This document shows, piece after piece, positions 12,647 through 55,072 of a DNA stretch of 64,000 nucleotides. Positions within the stretch are counted from its first letter, which is position 1, and every line of letters starts with the position of its first letter. The stretch covers positions 53,087-117,086 of the forward strand of contig DASYHJ010000003.1 of assembly GCA_035998725.1 (NCBI GenBank). Reading direction: 5' to 3'. Source of the stretch: Pirellulaceae bacterium (lineage in GTDB: Bacteria > Planctomycetota > Planctomycetia > Pirellulales > Pirellulaceae). The notes below the pieces were generated by a model. The model was given only the letters and a program-made list of their open reading frames with translations, did not search any database and had not been told where the DNA came from. A program made the position numbers and the translations under genes.

Positions 12647-12897
12647 AGCCTCGCCCTCCTAGCACGCGACTTCAGTCGCGTCTGGTTTCGAGCGAATGAC
12701 AGCAGATGCAAAGAGCGTACCGATTTCGAAAGCCCGTCTTTTCCGGGCTTGCCGGTCATTTAGGTGGCTGCGAAGAAGACAATCGGCCGTCTGCACGAGC
12801 GCGACGCCCCTCGCGCCCGAGTACCGTTAGTTGCCGCTGCTTTTCACCAGCCTGCCCGTCCATCTTTCCGGCTCGTCCTTCCGGGCCCGAGCAATCC

Positions 12898-13722
12898 TTG
12901 TCAAACCGGCGCCCGGCTCCTAATGCGAAGCAGCGACTCCGAACGTTCGTCGTCGCGATTCTCTTCATCGGCGCGGCGGCGGGCGGCTGCGCCTGGTCCA
13001 GTGCGGACGCGGGGAACGAGCGAGTCACGCTGCTCGTCGCGGCCAGCGCGAAGGAGGGGGCGGAAGAGATCGCGGCGGGCTTCGAGGCAGCATCCGACGC
13101 CGAGGTCGACGTGAGCATCGGCGGGTCGAACGCGCTGGCGCAGCAGATCATCGCGGGCGCTCCTGCAGACTTGTTCCTCTCTGCCAGCGAGGAGTGGGCG
13201 GACGCGATCGCCGAAGAAGATCTGATCGCCCGACGCGCCGACCTGCTGTCGAATCGGCTGGTCCTGGTCGTTCCCCGGAGCAATCCGGCAGACGTGCGAG
13301 AACCGTCGGACCTGCTGCGCGAGCAAGTCCAGCGGGTCGCGCTTGCCGAGGAGAACGTCCCGGCAGGTCGCTACGCCGAGCAGGCGCTGACGAAGCTCGA
13401 TCTTTTCCAGAAGCTCTCGGCCTCTCCGAAGATCGCACGAGGACACGACGTCAGAGCGACGCTGGCCTTCGTCGAACGGGGCGAAGCTGAAGCCGGCGTC
13501 GTCTATGCGACGGATGCGATCCTCGCGAACGACGTCGAGGTCGTTTACCATTTCGACCCCGCGATGCACGATCCCATCATCTATCCGCTCGCGCTGTTGA
13601 AGGCCGGCGCCGCGAACCCGGCGGCGGTGGAACTGTTCGAGCGCCTGCAGTCGGCGGACGCGAGGAAGGTCTTCCAAAAGCGAGGTTTCCAGCCGTTGAC
13701 TTCTCCGTCGGCTGCGAGGTAA
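12898..13722 (+). CDS. modA: Molybdate ABC transporter substrate-binding protein
   Basis: ModA-like periplasmic binding fold. There is no in-frame ATG, so a TTG start at 12898 was chosen because it gives a lipoprotein-like signal (LFIGAAAGGC). The exact start is uncertain. Confidence 0.75.
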   Translation: MSNRRPAPNAKQRLRTFVVAILFIGAAAGGCAWSSADAGNERVTLLVAASAKEGAEEIAAGFEAASDAEVDVSIGGSNALAQQIIAGAPADLFLSASEEWADAIAEEDLIARRADLLSNRLVLVVPRSNPADVREPSDLLREQVQRVALAEENVPAGRYAEQALTKLDLFQKLSASPKIARGHDVRATLAFVERGEAEAGVVYATDAILANDVEVVYHFDPAMHDPIIYPLALLKAGAANPAAVELFERLQSADARKVFQKRGFQPLTSPSAAR

Positions 13723-13725
13723 CGC

Positions 13726-14406
13726 GTGGCGGCGGATTCGTGGAACGCCATCGGCCTGAGCCTGCTCGTCGCGACCGTCGCCGTGCTCGCGAGTCTGCCG
13801 TTCGGCGTCGCCCTCGGCTGGCTTCTCGCCAGGCGGGAGTTCCCCGGCAAGAGTCTGCTGGAGACCGTCGTCAGCCTGCCGCTGGTTCTGCCGCCGGTCG
13901 TGACGGGATGGCTGCTTCTCGTCTCGTTCGGCCGTCGCGGCGCCGTGGGCGGGGCGCTGGAAGAGTGGCTCGGCGTGCGACTGATCTTCGACTGGAAGGG
14001 CGCGGCGCTCGCCGCGGCGGTGGTATCGTTTCCGCTGATGGTTCGCGCGATCCGCATCGCGTTCGACGGCGTCGACAGGGGACTGGAGCAGGCCGCCCGA
14101 ACGCTCGGCGCGGCGCCGCTCGACGCCTTCTTCACGATCTCGCTTCCCTGCGCCCGGCGCGGCATCGTCGCGGGGTGCGTCCTGGCCTTCGCGCGCAGCC
14201 TGGGCGAGTTCGGCGCCACGATCATGATCGCCGGCAACATCCCGGGCCGCACGCAGACGATCCCGCTGAAGATCTACAGCGAGCTCGAATCGCCGGGCGG
14301 TATGGAGCGCTCGCTGCCGCTGATCCTGTTCTCGATCGCGATCGCGGCGGCGGCGCTGGCGATCGGGAACTGGCTCGACCGGCGCGGCGGAGGAGGGATG
14401 CGATGA
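13726..14406 (+). CDS. modB: Molybdate ABC transporter permease
   Basis: 226-aa TM protein with the ABC permease EAA-like loop 'AARTLGAAPLDAFFTISLP'. Its stop overlaps the modC start (ATGA). Confidence 0.85.
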   Translation: MAADSWNAIGLSLLVATVAVLASLPFGVALGWLLARREFPGKSLLETVVSLPLVLPPVVTGWLLLVSFGRRGAVGGALEEWLGVRLIFDWKGAALAAAVVSFPLMVRAIRIAFDGVDRGLEQAARTLGAAPLDAFFTISLPCARRGIVAGCVLAFARSLGEFGATIMIAGNIPGRTQTIPLKIYSELESPGGMERSLPLILFSIAIAAAALAIGNWLDRRGGGGMR

Positions 14407-15056
14407 ACGATCTCCCCCTGCTGGAGTTCGCCTGCCGGCATCGCTACGCCGACGGCTTCGAACTCGACGCGCGGTTCGCGACCGACGCCTCGGTGACCGC
14501 GCTCTTCGGCACGTCAGGCAGCGGCAAGACGACGATTCTCTCGCTCATCGCGGGGCTGCTCCGCCCGACCGCCGGCATGATTCGTTTCCGCGATCAGGCG
14601 TTCGTGGATACCGCGCGGAATAGGTTTCTCCCGCCGGAGCGTCGCCGCGTGGGCGTTCTCTTTCAGGAGCGTCGCCTCTTTCCGCATCTGACCGTGCGGT
14701 CGAACATCGCCTACGGCGCTCGCCGACGGCAGGGCGGAACGCCGATCGACGCGACGATCGAGGCGCTCGAGATCGGCGACCTCCTCGATCGCTATCCGCG
14801 CACGCTCAGCGGCGGCCAGCAGCAACGCGTCGCCCTCGCGCGGGCGGTGGCGTCCGCGCCCGAGATCCTGCTGCTGGACGAACCGCTCACCGGGGTCGAG
14901 GCGCCGCTGCGCGATCGGATCGCCGACTATCTGCAGCAAGTCATCGCCCAGATCGCCGTGCCGACGCTGCTGGTGACGCACCATCGCGAGCTCGTCGACC
15001 GACTGGCGCAGCGGTCGGTCGCGATCGAGGCGGGACGCGTCGTCGCCGAGAATTGA
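14403..15056 (+). CDS. modC: Molybdate ABC transporter ATP-binding protein
   Basis: Walker A 'GTSGSGKTT', signature 'LSGGQQQRVALAR', Walker B 'LLLDEP'. Start is the ATG at 14403, overlapping the modB stop. Confidence 0.85.
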   Translation: MNDLPLLEFACRHRYADGFELDARFATDASVTALFGTSGSGKTTILSLIAGLLRPTAGMIRFRDQAFVDTARNRFLPPERRRVGVLFQERRLFPHLTVRSNIAYGARRRQGGTPIDATIEALEIGDLLDRYPRTLSGGQQQRVALARAVASAPEILLLDEPLTGVEAPLRDRIADYLQQVIAQIAVPTLLVTHHRELVDRLAQRSVAIEAGRVVAEN

Positions 15057-17068: not shown

Positions 17069-17190
17069 GTTGCCTGACGGGCGGATTCTCGCGACACTGT
17101 CGCCGGATGGCGGGGTTCGCCCCTCGGGCGCATTCTGCGCCGCCGACGCCGAGCAGGCACGTTCGAAGACAGGCAGCAGAGGAGGGGGCG

Positions 17191-18633
17191 ATGAATCGTC
17201 AGTGGATGTGGTGTTCGGGCCTCGCGTGTTCGCTCGCGATGGCGAACGGCGCCTTTGCGCAGGACTGGCCGCAATGGCGGGGGCCGAATCGCGACGCCCG
17301 CGTGAGCGGATTCGAAGCTCCCGAGACATGGCCTGACCTGCTCAAGAAGGAATGGAGCGTGACGGTCGGCGATGGCGTCGCTTCTCCGGCGCTTGTCGGC
17401 GAGCGGCTGTACGTCAACTATCGCGAGGACGGCAAGGAGACCGCTCGCTGCCTCGACGCCGCGACGGGGAAAGAGATCTGGCGCTTCGACGTTCCGGCCG
17501 AAGCTCGCCGCGGCGCCGACGGCGGCTTCCCTGGTCCCCGCGCGACGCCCGCTGTGGCGGACGGCAAGATGGCGATCCTGGGCGTTCATGGGACGCTGCG
17601 GTGCCTCGACGCCGAGACCGGCAAGCTCCTGTGGGAGAACGCGGAATTCGAAGGCGATATCCCTCGCTTCGCCACGTCGAGTTCGCCGATCGTGGTGGAC
17701 GGACTCTGCGTCGCGCAGCTCGGCAGCGAAGAGCGCGGCGCGCTCGTCGCCTTCGATCTGAATACGGGCGAGGAACGCTGGCGCCTGGCGGGCGAAGCGC
17801 CGGCTTACGCCTCGCCGGCGCTCATCGCGCTGGACGGGAAGCAGGCGATCGTCACGCCGACCGACCGCAGCTTGATCGCCGTCGACGCGGCCTCCGGAAA
17901 GCTGCTCTGGAAGATCGACTATCTGCAGGGGCGCTACAACGCCGCCTCGCCGATCGTCGAGGGCGACGAGCTAGTTTACGCCGGTCCCACACGAGGCTTG
18001 ACGGCGGTTTCGCTCGTGTCGAAGGACGAAGCGATCGACGCGAAGGAACTCTGGAAGAGCCCGGAAGCTACGGTGCAGTTCAATACGCCGGTGAAACGAG
18101 AGAACCTGATCTTCGGCCTGTCGAACGCGGGGCAAGTCTTCTGCGTCGATGCTGAAACCGGAGAAATGAAATGGACGGCGCCGCTCTCGGAAGAGACGCC
18201 TTCCGCCGAAAGCGAGCGACCGGCAGGCGAGCGTCCTGAAGGAACGCCTCGCCGGGAGAATTCCGGCGAGCGAACGGAACAGCCGGGTCAACGCTCCGAG
18301 GGTCAGCGTCCTGAGGGACGACCAGACGGGCGGCCAGGCTTCGGCGATCGCGGTCCCGGCGGACCGGGAGGTCCTGGAGGCCGCTTCGGCGGAGGCGCTC
18401 GTCGGGGAGGCGGAGGCCGAGGCGGCTACGGCAGCATCGTCGACGCTGGCTCCGCTCTGTTCGCGCTGACGCCGAACGGCAAGCTGATCGCTTTCGAGCC
18501 TACCGCGGAAGCGTACAAGCCGCTCGCGACGTACCAGGTGGCTCAGGAAGGGACCTACGCCTACCCGATCGTGGCCGGCAAGCGGATCTACGTCAAAGAC
18601 CAGAACGATCTCACGCTCTGGACGTTGCCGTAA
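17191..18633 (+). CDS. PQQ-like beta-propeller repeat protein (BamB-like) with internal disordered Gly/Arg/Pro-rich insertion
   Basis: Signal peptide MNRQWMWCSGLACSLAMANGAFAQDW. Repeated 'G..LY....DG.L.ALDA.TGK..W' blades. Low-complexity insert from about 18187 to 18440. Confidence 0.75.
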   Translation: MNRQWMWCSGLACSLAMANGAFAQDWPQWRGPNRDARVSGFEAPETWPDLLKKEWSVTVGDGVASPALVGERLYVNYREDGKETARCLDAATGKEIWRFDVPAEARRGADGGFPGPRATPAVADGKMAILGVHGTLRCLDAETGKLLWENAEFEGDIPRFATSSSPIVVDGLCVAQLGSEERGALVAFDLNTGEERWRLAGEAPAYASPALIALDGKQAIVTPTDRSLIAVDAASGKLLWKIDYLQGRYNAASPIVEGDELVYAGPTRGLTAVSLVSKDEAIDAKELWKSPEATVQFNTPVKRENLIFGLSNAGQVFCVDAETGEMKWTAPLSEETPSAESERPAGERPEGTPRRENSGERTEQPGQRSEGQRPEGRPDGRPGFGDRGPGGPGGPGGRFGGGARRGGGGRGGYGSIVDAGSALFALTPNGKLIAFEPTAEAYKPLATYQVAQEGTYAYPIVAGKRIYVKDQNDLTLWTLP

Positions 18634-18669
18634 TCGGCGCTGGACGTTCCTAGCCCGTCGAATTCGTGA

Positions 18670-18706
18670 GGGAGGCGTCGCTCTGGGCGGCGCCTCCCTT
18701 CTTTCG
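18670..18706 (+). terminator. Hairpin terminator
   Basis: GGGAGGCG...CGCCTCCC stem followed by a T-rich tract, 3' of the PQQ gene. Confidence 0.5.
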
Positions 18707-18861
18707 TCTCAGGCTGCGATCCTGACATGGCGGATATTTTCCCGAGAAGAGTCGTAACGAATCGCGAGCCGTTCCGCTTCGACAGACAGAGACAGGAACG
18801 AGGCCTTCGAGGACGAAGGCCGCCTGTTCGAAATCCCTCTGCTGGAAAGCGAAACGATCCG

Positions 18862-19245
18862 ATGCTCGCCAACTTCAAGATTCTGACCTTCTCGCTCGTC
18901 GCCGCCTTCGCCCTGATCGCCTCGGCCAGCGCCTACGCCGGCAACGGTCATGGCGGTCACGGACACGGTCACGGTCACAACCATGGCGGTAACGGGCATG
19001 GCCACGGGCACGGGCACGGCCACGGCCACGGGCATGGTCACGGTCATGGACACGGCCATGGTCACAACCACGGCGGTCATGGGCACGGCCATCACCACCA
19101 CGGACATGGCCACTTCCATATCCAACCCTTCCCGTACCAGCAGTTCCCGCACTTTCACAACGGTCATTTTCACAACGGACACTTCCACAACGGCCACTTC
19201 CATGGCCGCAACGGGGGCGGCTTCCAGTTCCACTTCAGCAAGTAA
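18862..19245 (+). CDS. Secreted histidine/glycine-rich repeat protein (putative metal-binding)
   Basis: Signal peptide MLANFKILTFSLVAAFALIASASAYA, then a (HG)n run of about 35 dipeptides, HHHHGHGH, and four FHNGH repeats. The underlying DNA is a CACGGC-type microsatellite. Confidence 0.6.
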   Translation: MLANFKILTFSLVAAFALIASASAYAGNGHGGHGHGHGHNHGGNGHGHGHGHGHGHGHGHGHGHGHGHNHGGHGHGHHHHGHGHFHIQPFPYQQFPHFHNGHFHNGHFHNGHFHGRNGGGFQFHFSK

Positions 19246-19337
19246 CTTTCTGACTCGGCTCTTTCGAAGGCACGATCGGACGGACTTACGAACTCTAACC
19301 TGAGCCAGCCGCGGCCGACTTCTGCCGTCGAAACGAC

Positions 19338-19372
19338 GCGAGGGAGCGTTTCTATCAGGAACGCTCCCTCGC
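19338..19372. terminator. Bidirectional hairpin between convergent genes
   Basis: 13-bp perfect stem GCGAGGGAGCGTT / AACGCTCCCTCGC with a 9-nt loop. Confidence 0.5.
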
Positions 19373-21239: not shown

Positions 21240-22115
21240 TTAGCGTGTCGGCGACAGCCCCGGGGGTTCGACCGGGACGGCATCGCCTCCGATTTTACGG
21301 GATGCGGCATAAGGGTCGACGCTTGGACCCACTTCGTAGAGCGGCGGCGTGGGGAGCTGCGTCACGGGTTCGACCGGAGGCAGACGACGAACTAGCTCGG
21401 ACAGATAGACACTGCTGTCGCAAGCGTTTACGACACGCACTGCGGTGTTGTATTCAGCTTCCAGACGCGCGATCGTCTGCCGGTCGACTTCGAACTGGTT
21501 CCAGGCAACATTGGCCGCCCTTTCCATGTCGTCGTCAGGATTGACTCGATCCGTCACCTTCTTCCTGCGTGCCTTTTGAGCCGCGAGGCGCTCCTGATCA
21601 AGCTGCTTCGCTAGAAACGGATTTCCTGCTTCGGCGGCTGCCAAGATCTTGTCTTCGTAGGCTTCTTGTTCCGCTTCCGACAATACGGCGCTTGGAAACC
21701 GTTTGGCGAAATCGGCGATCCGTGCCACAGATTCCGTCCTTGCCCGGCCAAGTTCCCGCGCCGCGACTTCGAGCCGCGCTCGGCGATGAGCCCGATCGAC
21801 CGTCAGCTTTTCTAAGGCCATCTGGATGACCTCGCTGCCATCTTTGCCGTTAAGGGCAGTCCGTCGCGCCTCGGACGTCACGTCGGGGTCGGCCACCGTT
21901 ACTTCGGTCTCCTTCACCGTCGAGAAAAACACGTCCATAGCATTGCGGAACGCTTCCTGATCGCTGCCATGAAGCGACAGTTCCACGACGTGACGAGATT
22001 CAGCAAATTTTTCTTCCGAGGAGCCATCCAGGCGCGGAGGCGCTTGCACCTGAGGCTCGCTCACGCAACCTCCCAATATCGCCGCCAAGGCGAAGGCCGC
22101 GACCGAACGTTGCAT
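21240..22115 (-). CDS. hypothetical lipoprotein
   Basis: Lipobox 'AAILGGC'. Coiled-coil-rich, no known domain. Confidence 0.45.
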   Translation of the reverse strand: MQRSVAAFALAAILGGCVSEPQVQAPPRLDGSSEEKFAESRHVVELSLHGSDQEAFRNAMDVFFSTVKETEVTVADPDVTSEARRTALNGKDGSEVIQMALEKLTVDRAHRRARLEVAARELGRARTESVARIADFAKRFPSAVLSEAEQEAYEDKILAAAEAGNPFLAKQLDQERLAAQKARRKKVTDRVNPDDDMERAANVAWNQFEVDRQTIARLEAEYNTAVRVVNACDSSVYLSELVRRLPPVEPVTQLPTPPLYEVGPSVDPYAASRKIGGDAVPVEPPGLSPTR

Positions 22116-53364: not shown

Positions 53365-53722
53365 ATGGGCGTCCGGCGCCGCTCTCCGCGGACGCCGCCG
53401 GTGGACACTTCGGTTGGTCGGCCGGGCCCGCAAGAAATTTTTTCTCGCCGGCGGCTGACGCTCGCTGCGCTCGACGTTTCGCCTCCGTGCTGACCGATGC
53501 CACGTCGATCGCACGGCGCAACCGCTGACGGCGCGAGAGAGTTAGCGGCACGCTCGTTGGAGGCAAGTTTGCCGGAGGCGACCTGCTTTCCCGTCGCCGC
53601 TCGCTTCCCCGTCGCCCCCCTTCGTGAAGCTGCACGTCGCCGCGACAAGCGAACGTGCGTATCGTTTGATAGAACAGAACGAGAGCCCGCCGACGTCTGC
53701 CTCCTCGCCGCAAAGGGATTGG

Positions 53723-55072
53723 ACGATGGTCGAAACCGCATCCGGCTACGAGGAGTTCGACGAACCGGTCTCGTTCGAGTCGGGTCTCGACACGCTGTTG
53801 CTCGGGGCCCATCGCGAGAGCAATAAGGGCCTCGGCTTTCATTCCAAGGCCGCCGGTCGGACCGAAACCAGGGCCGCTCTCTACGACGGCGACGCCCATC
53901 TCTGCACCGTCGCGCCGACGCGTTCCGGCAAAGGGGTCGGCGTCATCGCGCCGAATCTCCTTACCTACCGCGGCCCCGTCGTCGTCTTCGATCCGAAGGG
54001 CGAGAACTACGAAATCACCGCGCGGCGGCGCCGGGAGATGGGGCATCAGGTCGTACGGCTCGACCCGTTCGGCGTCTGCGGCGAAGGGGGCGACTCCTTC
54101 AATCCGCTCGAACTGTTCCAACTCAAGGGGATCGACGTCGAGTGCGATTCGCAGTCGATGGCCTCGCTCCTCTCGCGCGGCATCACCGGGTCGAAGGAAC
54201 CCTTCTGGGACATCAACGGCAGCGGCCTCTCCGCCGGCCTGATCGCCTGCGCGCTGACGCAGGGAGACGAGACCAAGAAGAGCCTGAACTACGTGGTCGA
54301 CGCGCTGACGCGGGATGACGTCGTTTACAACCTCGCCGTCGTGCTCGACACGGTCGGGAAGGAGATCAGCAAGTACGCCCATCGCGAGATCGCCAGCATG
54401 CTCCAGATGCCGGACATCACGCGCGGCGGCGTCCTGGCGACGGCGCAGACCTACTTCAAGCCGTTCATGTCCGACCTGATCGGACGGACGCTGGGCGAGT
54501 CGAGCTTCTCGCTGCAGGACTTCGCCGACGGCAAGCCGATCTCGATTTATCTCGTGCTCCCCCCCAGCCGGCTGCACAGCCATCGCGGGCTGCTCAAGCT
54601 CTGGATGGGAACGCTCCTCGCCGCGATCCTGACGCGGAAGCGGATCCCGCGCCTCCGCACGCTCTTCCTGATCGACGAGGCGGCGCAGCTCGAAAGCTTT
54701 CCGCTGCTCGAGCCGATGATCACCCTCGCGGCAGGCTACGGCGTCTGGGTCCACACCTTCTGGCAGGACCTGTCGCAGCTCAAAACCTGCTATCCGGAAT
54801 CGTGGAAGACCATCCTGAACAACTGCGGCGTGATCCAGACGTTCGGCATCTACAACCGTGACATGGCCGTGCAGTGGGGCGAGTACTTCGACGCCGGCCC
54901 GGCGGAACTTCGCAGCCTGACGCCGGAAGAACAGATCATCGCCATTCACGGACGCGGCGAACTCCGCTGCCGGCGGCTGAACTATCTCACCGACCGCCGC
55001 TTCTCCGGCATGTTCGACAAGAACAGCTTCTACGCGAACCGCCCGACGCCCGGCCAGCCGATGGGGAAGTAA
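53723..55072 (+). CDS. Type IV coupling-protein-like ATPase (TraG/TraD/VirD4 family), soluble, orphan
   Basis: 'APTRSGKGVGVIAPNLL' Walker A, 'VVFDPKGE', C-terminal all-alpha domain. No N-terminal TM helices. The start is uncertain; an alternative TTG/ATG lies at 53624. Confidence 0.55.
   Translation, partial: TMVETASGYEEFDEPVSFESGLDTLLLGAHRESNKGLGFHSKAAGRTETRAALYDGDAHLCTVAPTRSGKGVGVIAPNLLTYRGPVVVFDPKGENYEITARRRREMGHQVVRLDPFGVCGEGGDSFNPLELFQLKGIDVECDSQSMASLLSRGITGSKEPFWDINGSGLSAGLIACALTQGDETKKSLNYVVDALTRDDVVYNLAVVLDTVGKEISKYAHREIASMLQMPDITRGGVLATAQTYFKPFMSDLIGRTLGESSFSLQDFADGKPISIYLVLPPSRLHSHRGLLKLWMGTLLAAILTRKRIPRLRTLFLIDEAAQLESFPLLEPMITLAAGYGVWVHTFWQDLSQLKTCYPESWKTILNNCGVIQTFGIYNRDMAVQWGEYFDAGPAELRSLTPEEQIIAIHGRGELRCRRLNYLTDRRFSGMFDKNSFYANRPTPGQPMGK

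Follow-up and report, generated by a model that had tools for sequence, protein, structure and literature searches.

Clusters of histidine, whether HxH motifs or poly-His and His-Gly runs, chelate nickel, zinc, copper and cobalt, a property that forms the basis of immobilized metal affinity chromatography. In gastric Helicobacter, the His-rich proteins Hpn and Hpn-2 bind and store nickel (PMC4671568), the periplasmic protein CopI captures copper through an N-terminal His-rich domain (PMC13308877), and His-rich loops are found in RcnA and in CDF, ZIP and NicO proteins (PMC11247825). In the histidine-rich proteins of the squid beak, GHGxY pentapeptide repeats drive liquid-liquid phase separation by means of His-Tyr hydrogen bonds and aromatic stacking (PMC6884462), and the Gly/His-rich peptide shepherin I fibrillises in the presence of Zn(II) (PMC10698721). 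The present analysis concerns a gene for a small, putatively exported protein made up largely of His and Gly, which lies in a 64,000-nucleotide stretch (hereafter the window) of the genome of the soil planctomycete Pirellulaceae bacterium (assembly GCA_035998725.1, contig DASYHJ010000003.1, positions 53,087 to 117,086 of the forward strand) and is unannotated in this host.

The His-rich gene specifies 127 residues, which read in order MLANFKILTFSLVAAFALIASASAYA, GNGHGGHGHGHGHNHGGNGHGHGHGHGHGHGHGHGHGHGHGHNHGGHGHGHHHHGHGH, FHIQPFPYQQFPH, FHNGHFHNGHFHNGHFHG and RNGGGFQFHFSK, with the predicted signal peptide cleavage falling between the first two segments (Table 1). The mature part of 101 residues contains 37 His (37%), 34 Gly (34%), 10 Phe and 8 Asn, an enrichment in His and Gly that is far above chance. 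It has one Arg and one Lys and is devoid of Cys, Met, Asp and Glu, and Trp is missing from the whole protein. There are 22 HG and 25 GH dipeptides, 27 overlapping HxH motifs and a single block of four consecutive His (HHHHGHGH). A preliminary description of this DNA had recognised a secreted His-Gly protein of 127 residues behind a clear signal peptide, as well as the HHHHGHGH block, and on these points the open reading frame (ORF), the Sec motif and the composition agree with it. Its figure of about 35 HG dipeptides has to be corrected, being roughly the number of His or of Gly residues, and in place of the four FHNGH repeats it listed there are three, followed by a truncated FHG. No second His-rich ORF was found in the six frames of the window.

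The signal peptide is built of an n-region with Lys6 (MLANFK), a 14-residue h-region of mean Kyte-Doolittle hydropathy 2.56 (ILTFSLVAAFALIA) and a segment, SASAYA, that ends in a motif of the AxA type recognised by signal peptidase I (AYA before G, the mature chain opening with GNG). It constitutes the sole hydrophobic segment of the protein, and its conservation in related species, described below, supports export through the Sec pathway. An AlphaFold2 model, computed on a two-sequence alignment, had a mean pLDDT (predicted local distance difference test) of 49, with most of the mature part below 50; the only confident helix (residues 2-29, pLDDT 69-81) covers the signal peptide. The net charge of the mature chain is about zero at neutral pH. 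The lack of acidic residues would make it a pH-switchable polycation, predicted to be strongly cationic below pH 6 and nearly neutral at pH 7.

Searches of Pfam, NCBIfam, PDB sequences and Rfam returned nothing above threshold. The Pfam family PF22807 (TrAA12-like) was considered and rejected, with 20.4 bits against a gathering threshold of 30.9 bits and an alignment that takes in only the last part of the signal peptide and the HG tract, where the similarity is compositional. Searches of 5.8 billion and 1.84 billion proteins gave no homology to Hpn or Hpn-2 beyond matches of composition only, and the PDB and Pfam searches gave no match to them either. A word-indexed search with the window protein retrieved only HG-rich sequences driven by composition, the best of which include the His-Gly loops of metal transporters of the CDF, ZIP and NicO types.

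The resemblance to Hpn and Hpn-2 lies in small size (about 60-70 residues in their case), extreme His content, low complexity, a lineage-restricted distribution and a presumed multivalent binding of divalent metal by imidazoles. However, Hpn and Hpn-2 are cytoplasmic and have no signal peptide, whereas the window protein carries a conserved one of the Sec type; they contain Cys pairs or Gln-rich stretches where the window protein has Gly and Phe, and nothing at the window locus corresponds to their genomic and physiological ties with urease, hydrogenase and NikR. CopI, RcnA and the CDF, ZIP and NicO proteins also expose His-Gly or His-x-His runs, to the periplasm or the cytoplasm, for the capture of copper, nickel or zinc, but in all of them these runs are appended to a folded domain or a transporter. 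The mature part of the window protein, in contrast, is wholly His-rich, with no cupredoxin, transmembrane transporter or Pfam domain in the protein. The squid-beak proteins and the peptides derived from them (HBpep), together with shepherin I, share with it a secreted, putatively disordered Gly/His/aromatic chain of five-residue periodicity. They self-associate in response to pH or Zn, but are eukaryotic and non-homologous, and their aromatic residue is Tyr instead of Phe. A further set is formed by the metagenome proteins P0001, P0003, P0008 and P0035, an apparently uncharacterised family whose members carry a tract of (GHGHG)n or (GYGHG)n and have CWxWTPxGYxWxC at the C-terminus. These bacterial proteins of 90-150 residues resemble the window protein in that a signal peptide precedes a His-Gly tract and the chain closes with a short conserved module, but their module is one of a Cys pair with Trp, residues that the window protein lacks, and their signal peptides are unrelated; the similarity is only compositional, with E-values of 1e-4 to 1e-5 over the HG tract alone. 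Judged by these comparisons, the window protein belongs neither to Hpn, nor to the transporter loops, nor to the (GHGHG)n-CWxWTPxGYxWxC set, and it is best described as a clade-restricted, histidine-rich, low-complexity polypeptide of putative metal-binding kind, unusual in being apparently exported and in having nothing else in its mature part.

A phmmer search of 1.84 billion representative proteins produced a single full-length homologue, P0010 (109 residues, E = 1.6e-14), the other matches at E ≤ 0.001 whose sequences were inspected, about 70 in number, being confined to the HG tract. P0010 comes from one of two related uncultured Pirellulaceae species, here called B and C, the window representing species A. 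Its gene lies in the same order as in the window (TPR, PQQ-propeller, small gene, convergent gene of 574 codons), and the proteins flanking the small gene are 83-88% identical between A and B. The third member, a gene of 104 codons in species C that agrees in location and strand, was reached through a neighbouring protein, P0131, of 81% identity. In all three species the family occupies the position between the PQQ-propeller gene and a convergent gene for a GH20-like protein of 573 residues.

Both ends of the protein are conserved. A signal peptide starting MLANxK, with an A-[YF]-A cleavage site followed by G, occurs in the three species (22 of 26 residues identical between A and B, and the same layout in C), as do C-terminal FH[N/D]G[H/R] repeats followed by GGG[F/I]x[F/L]HF[S/G]K. 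Cys and Met are absent from all three mature proteins. The centre cannot be aligned between species: in the 127-residue protein of species A it is an HG tract of 58 residues (mature part 37% His); in the 109 residues of species B it is non-repetitive, with HDHHRHH and no HG tract (17-18% His); and in the 104 residues of species C it comprises GHGHGHGGHHG and a run of seven His (33% His). This variability reflects the replacement or expansion of the centre as a whole and goes beyond the gain or loss of repeat units. Judging from the three sequences, the conserved traits of the family are its His-richness and the Phe/His pentapeptide module, the long (HG)n being an expansion in the window lineage.

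Among GTDB genomes, 80 loci of the 573-residue neighbour (at most 65% identity) showed no His-rich ORF, no PQQ synteny and no tblastn match, the gene was also absent from two more contigs at 67% neighbour identity, and the word-indexed search, run with the repeat-free orthologue P0010 as query, returned nothing but the query. The sole match from a scan of JGI metagenome contigs with the family alignment, locus L088, was discarded as spurious, being an alternative frame of a cytochrome c gene. In that gene, whose product is membrane-anchored, a 15-nt repeat at 2241-2300 encodes TMATS four times in its own frame and FHNGH four times in the other.

The locus is open on both strands, an ORF of 222 codons running opposite to the His-rich gene. 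The + frame is almost certainly the coding one and the opposite ORF a shadow ORF, that is, no gene. For species A, B and C, the GC content at the three codon positions of the sense frame is 0.72/0.40/0.76, 0.65/0.35/0.84 and 0.69/0.32/0.83, respectively. It resembles that of the real neighbour genes (0.64-0.69/0.43-0.55/0.77-0.86), whereas the antisense frame gives 0.62/0.57/0.66, with a third-position value (GC3) of 0.57-0.67. Position 1 of the antisense frame is position 3 of the sense frame, as is to be expected of a shadow ORF. Moreover, Nei-Gojobori dN/dS over 60 conserved codons amounts to 0.32 (A-B), 0.21 (A-C) and 0.24 (B-C), and the ATG, the canonical signal peptide, the C-terminal repeats and the position of the stop are kept on the + strand in the three species. 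The start of the antisense ORF falls within a terminator hairpin, species C lacks the corresponding ATG, and 1- and 2-nt indels between species interrupt the flanks of this ORF. On the contigs of species B and C, the gene callers took the + frame, though the antisense frame is stop-free there too. The preliminary description had set aside the opposite-strand ORF as a mirror artefact and proposed that the conserved frame be looked for in relatives, and both the orthologues and the gene calls bear it out.

The opposite reading, in which the + strand ORF would be nonfunctional and either the antisense ORF would be the real gene or the locus would be non-coding DNA or RNA open by chance in a genome of 66% G+C, can appeal to the antisense frame being free of stops across the locus in all three species, to its annotation in a JGI record and to the unusual degree of conservation of the flanking non-coding blocks. 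Against the codon-position GC, the interrupted flanks of the antisense ORF and the dN/dS of the sense frame, it is very improbable, and the locus very probably holds a true gene whose product is exported. In the JGI record of the source contig (3300035016 Ga0370534_00145, 117 kb), which a neighbouring protein of 100% identity, P0129, ties to an NCBI TPA Pirellulaceae MAG, a 174-residue version of the antisense ORF (18709..19233) is annotated and the His-rich gene is omitted. An extended sense version of 172 residues, starting at an in-frame ATG at 18727, was also rejected, that ATG being absent from species B and C and 1-nt indels breaking the frame. Exact-sequence look-ups of the 127- and 172-residue products gave no match.

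Table 1. Features of the His-rich gene and its flanks (positions within the window)
Feature	Position	Strand	Basis
His/Gly-rich protein coding sequence, ATG to TAA, 127 residues	18862..19245, stop included	+	ORF; orthologues in same frame; codon-position GC; dN/dS
Sec-type signal peptide (predicted), residues 1-26, MLANFKILTFSLVAAFALIASASAYA, cleaved before G27	18862..18939	+	n-, h- and c-regions; conservation; AlphaFold helix
(His-Gly)n tract, residues 27-84, punctuated by NHGG and containing HHHHGHGH	18940..19113	+	degenerate (CAYGGN)n DNA; pLDDT <50
Phe/Pro/Gln linker, residues 85-97, FHIQPFPYQQFPH	19114..19152	+	QPF..QFP common to species B
Pentapeptide repeats, FHNGH x3 + FHG, residues 98-115	19153..19206	+	Tandem Repeats Finder period 15 nt, 3.3 copies; conserved FH[N/D]G[H/R]
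C-terminal tail, residues 116-127, RNGGGFQFHFSK	19207..19242	+	GGG[F/I]x[F/L]HF[S/G]K in 3/3 species
Terminator-like hairpin after PQQ-propeller gene	18668..18700	+	15 pairs, 10 of them G-C; also present in species B and C
Conserved upstream region, putative promoter and 5' untranslated region	18760..18861	+	three-species alignment; consensus fold
Hairpin/palindrome GGCCTTCG-AGGA-CGAAGGCC	18802-18821	+	within conserved upstream region
Structured 3' untranslated region	19263..19372	+	near-invariant in 3 species; consensus fold
Shadow ORF, 222 residues	18709..19377	-	atypical codon-position GC; starts in terminator hairpin; ATG absent in species C

At the DNA level, Tandem Repeats Finder detected an array of period 6 at 18954-19065 (18 copies, 69% matches), two higher-order periods (18 and 33 nt) and, beneath the FHNGH block, one of 15 nt. 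The loose hexanucleotide period is what remains of the imperfect (CACGGC)n microsatellite of the preliminary description: CACGGC itself accounts for 5 of the 22 CAYGGN units, and the longest perfect hexamer periodicity extends over 17 nt, fewer than three units. His is encoded by 25 CAC and 12 CAT codons, and Gly by 14 GGC, 10 GGT, 6 GGG and 4 GGA. The repeat is one of the protein, with scrambled synonymous positions, and not a pure microsatellite. A simple-sequence contingency locus has a long perfect tandem tract of identical units, which the His-rich gene does not have, so that by this definition it falls outside the class. Variation by slipped-strand mispairing at a high rate is not expected of a tract with no long perfect repeat, and the idea that the repeat number is hypervariable between strains finds no support in the form in which it had been put. 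The comparison of repeat lengths covers one assembly of the window species and two alleles of species B, which lacks the tract and in which the alleles have equal length on the 4 contigs compared, from several runs (the protein cluster is recorded on 13 contigs).

As to function, the composition of the mature part makes plausible the preliminary proposal of a buffer for nickel, zinc or copper. In the more general form considered here, the protein would be a periplasmic or surface device for the buffering, sequestration or capture of divalent metals through multi-imidazole binding, a reading whose chances, judged from composition, fall slightly short of even. Sec export and cleavage of the signal peptide would release a disordered polypeptide of about 101 residues with three parts, the lineage-specific (His-Gly)n tract, the conserved FHNGH block and the Gly/Phe/His tail. 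Its imidazole clusters, namely the overlapping HxH motifs and the block of four His, would bind Zn2+, Ni2+, Cu2+ and Co2+ in a multivalent manner and with moderate affinity, and the metal-bound chain in the periplasm or at the cell surface would act as a buffer, a sink or a capture device. A chain that lacks Cys and Met favours borderline-hard cations over Cu(I). The retention of His-richness across the family despite an unalignable centre was counted in favour of metal binding, as was the presence of metal-transporter loops among the best matches by composition.

Several observations weigh against this reading. The part conserved between the species is the Phe/His pentapeptide block and not the HG tract, and the modest His content of species B suggests that selection may act on something other than bulk chelation capacity. 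The Pfam survey revealed no gene for a nickel, zinc, copper or cobalt transporter or sensor, or for metalloenzyme maturation, in the 64-kb window, where the only metal-related genes are those of a molybdate transporter (modABC, see below), the substrate of which is an oxyanion. The family appears to be a tiny orphan one, restricted to three related species of one narrow clade, and its product is for that reason unlikely to be a general component of metal homeostasis. Finally, the intrinsic disorder attributed to the mature polypeptide is suggested by a low-confidence model built on an alignment of two sequences.

The pattern of conservation bears also on a second explanation, in which the protein would be a self-assembling or phase-separating material of the envelope or the extracellular space, with FHNGH units as stickers and the HG tract as spacer, metal binding being the trigger and not the purpose. 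Condensation, coacervation or fibril formation would follow His deprotonation (above about pH 6.5) or cross-linking by Zn2+ or Cu2+, and the product could serve as matrix, in adhesion (as a holdfast) or as a coating. What is conserved in the three species, an F-H-x-G-H periodicity of five residues and a Phe-rich tail instead of the HG tract, is consistent with this explanation, as is the likeness to squid-beak proteins (PMC6884462) in His/Gly/aromatic/Asn composition, scarcity of charges and predicted disorder, and to the Zn(II)-fibrillising shepherin I (PMC10698721). The argument is nevertheless one of analogy without homology, Phe cannot form with His the hydrogen bond attributed to Tyr in the beak peptides, only three to four pentapeptide units are present, and no matrix, adhesin or secretion genes are adjacent. 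On balance, a material function seems unlikely.

By the same analogy, a more elaborate proposal can be conceived, to which a somewhat lower probability still is given. The family would represent a bacterial sticker-spacer peptide, with FH[N/D]GH stickers and an expandable (His-Gly)n spacer, whose condensation or fibrillation in the envelope or at the surface of planctomycetes would be triggered by pH or by Zn/Cu. It would be an independently evolved counterpart of the squid-beak proteins and shepherin, providing a tunable matrix, adhesive or metal-loaded coating, and would in addition be under post-transcriptional control by its 3' untranslated region (UTR).

The rapid evolution of the centre between species, as often observed in conflict molecules, and the lineage-restricted distribution could alternatively indicate a secreted Gly/His-rich peptide for antimicrobial or competitive purposes, cationic at mildly acidic pH and potentiated by Zn2+, that would act on membranes or starve rivals of metal. 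The small size of the exported product and a composition like that of shepherins and histatins (PMC10698721) fit this explanation. It has to contend, however, with the lack of immunity, processing or dedicated export genes nearby, with a Sec signal that by itself leads only as far as the periplasm in a diderm cell, with a net charge near zero at neutral pH and with the absence of homology to any bacteriocin family in Pfam or NCBIfam, and it must be considered improbable.

If the metal-binding reading holds, the gene would provide a diderm bacterium with a stand-alone exported poly-His/Gly protein, the mature part of which is wholly His-rich. No characterised counterpart appeared among the protein searches run, in which the His-rich metal binders were either cytoplasmic (Hpn) or appendages of folded proteins. 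Taken together, the three orthologues amount to a natural series, with the same signal peptide and C-terminal module and with centres giving 37%, 33% and 17-18% His, which could tell whether chelation capacity or the Phe/His repeat is under selection. In addition, the case illustrates that gene callers can choose a high-GC shadow ORF over a real gene of low complexity, meaning that such proteins may be missing from databases. Peptides of such composition are of interest for metal recovery and as pH-responsive materials. As the evidence on function is compositional and the family is limited to a single narrow clade, the finding is of modest immediate impact.

The His-rich gene looks like a stand-alone transcription unit, bounded at either end by a conserved terminator-like hairpin. 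Ahead of the start codon, the conserved blocks are GTAACG, TTCCGCTTCG, CAGAGAC and the palindrome GGCCTTCG-AGGA-CGAAGGCC, which may correspond to a promoter, an operator or a structure of the 5' UTR; in species C, an insertion of about 70 nt separates them from the ATG. Downstream, the 3' UTR, which hardly varies in the three species although the centre of the protein cannot be aligned, is organised around a long stem, in which TTCGAAGGC (19263-19271) would pair with GCCGTCGAA (19324-19332), enclosing inner helices. It is completed by a perfect terminator hairpin of 13 bp (19338-19372), shared with the convergent 573-codon gene and with arms that are unique in the window. The sequence directly after the stop codon and that beyond the hairpin diverge between species. 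Rfam gave no match for this element, and the pairs are invariant, so that the fold receives no support from covariation. It could be a regulatory 3' UTR or give rise to a small RNA derived from the 3' UTR.

Within about 10 kb on either side, the His-rich gene is accompanied by modABC, a PAS histidine kinase, the TPR protein, the PQQ/BamB-like propeller, the GH20-like protein, a DUF6694 protein, an OprB porin, a sulfatase and similar genes, and the remainder of the window holds housekeeping and typical planctomycete genes. The modABC genes of the molybdate ABC transporter (12706-15056, + strand) are co-directional with the His-rich gene and end about 4 kb upstream of it, before the TPR and PQQ genes; ModA and ModB scored above the NCBIfam cutoffs, and the third product is a ModC-like ATPase. 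The PQQ/BamB-like propeller gene (17107-18633, + strand), which encodes a secreted product, carries at 18187-18435 a low-complexity insert of 83 residues rich in Gly, Arg, Pro and Glu (SEETPSAESERPAGERPEG...GGGRGGYGS). No publication was retrieved under the accessions of the source sample and runs. In the distal part of the window, an ORF at 53624-55072 (+ strand) encodes a VirD4/TraG-type coupling protein of type IV secretion (T4SS-DNA_transf, TraG-D_C) and may mark an integrated conjugative element. Closer to the His-rich gene, in the interval that separates the OprB porin gene from the gene of 573/574 codons, species B has a gene for an Mrr-type restriction endonuclease (L083-L086, 1825-3579), the place of which is taken in the window (21240-22115) by the DUF6694 gene, a local gene replacement beside the conserved block.

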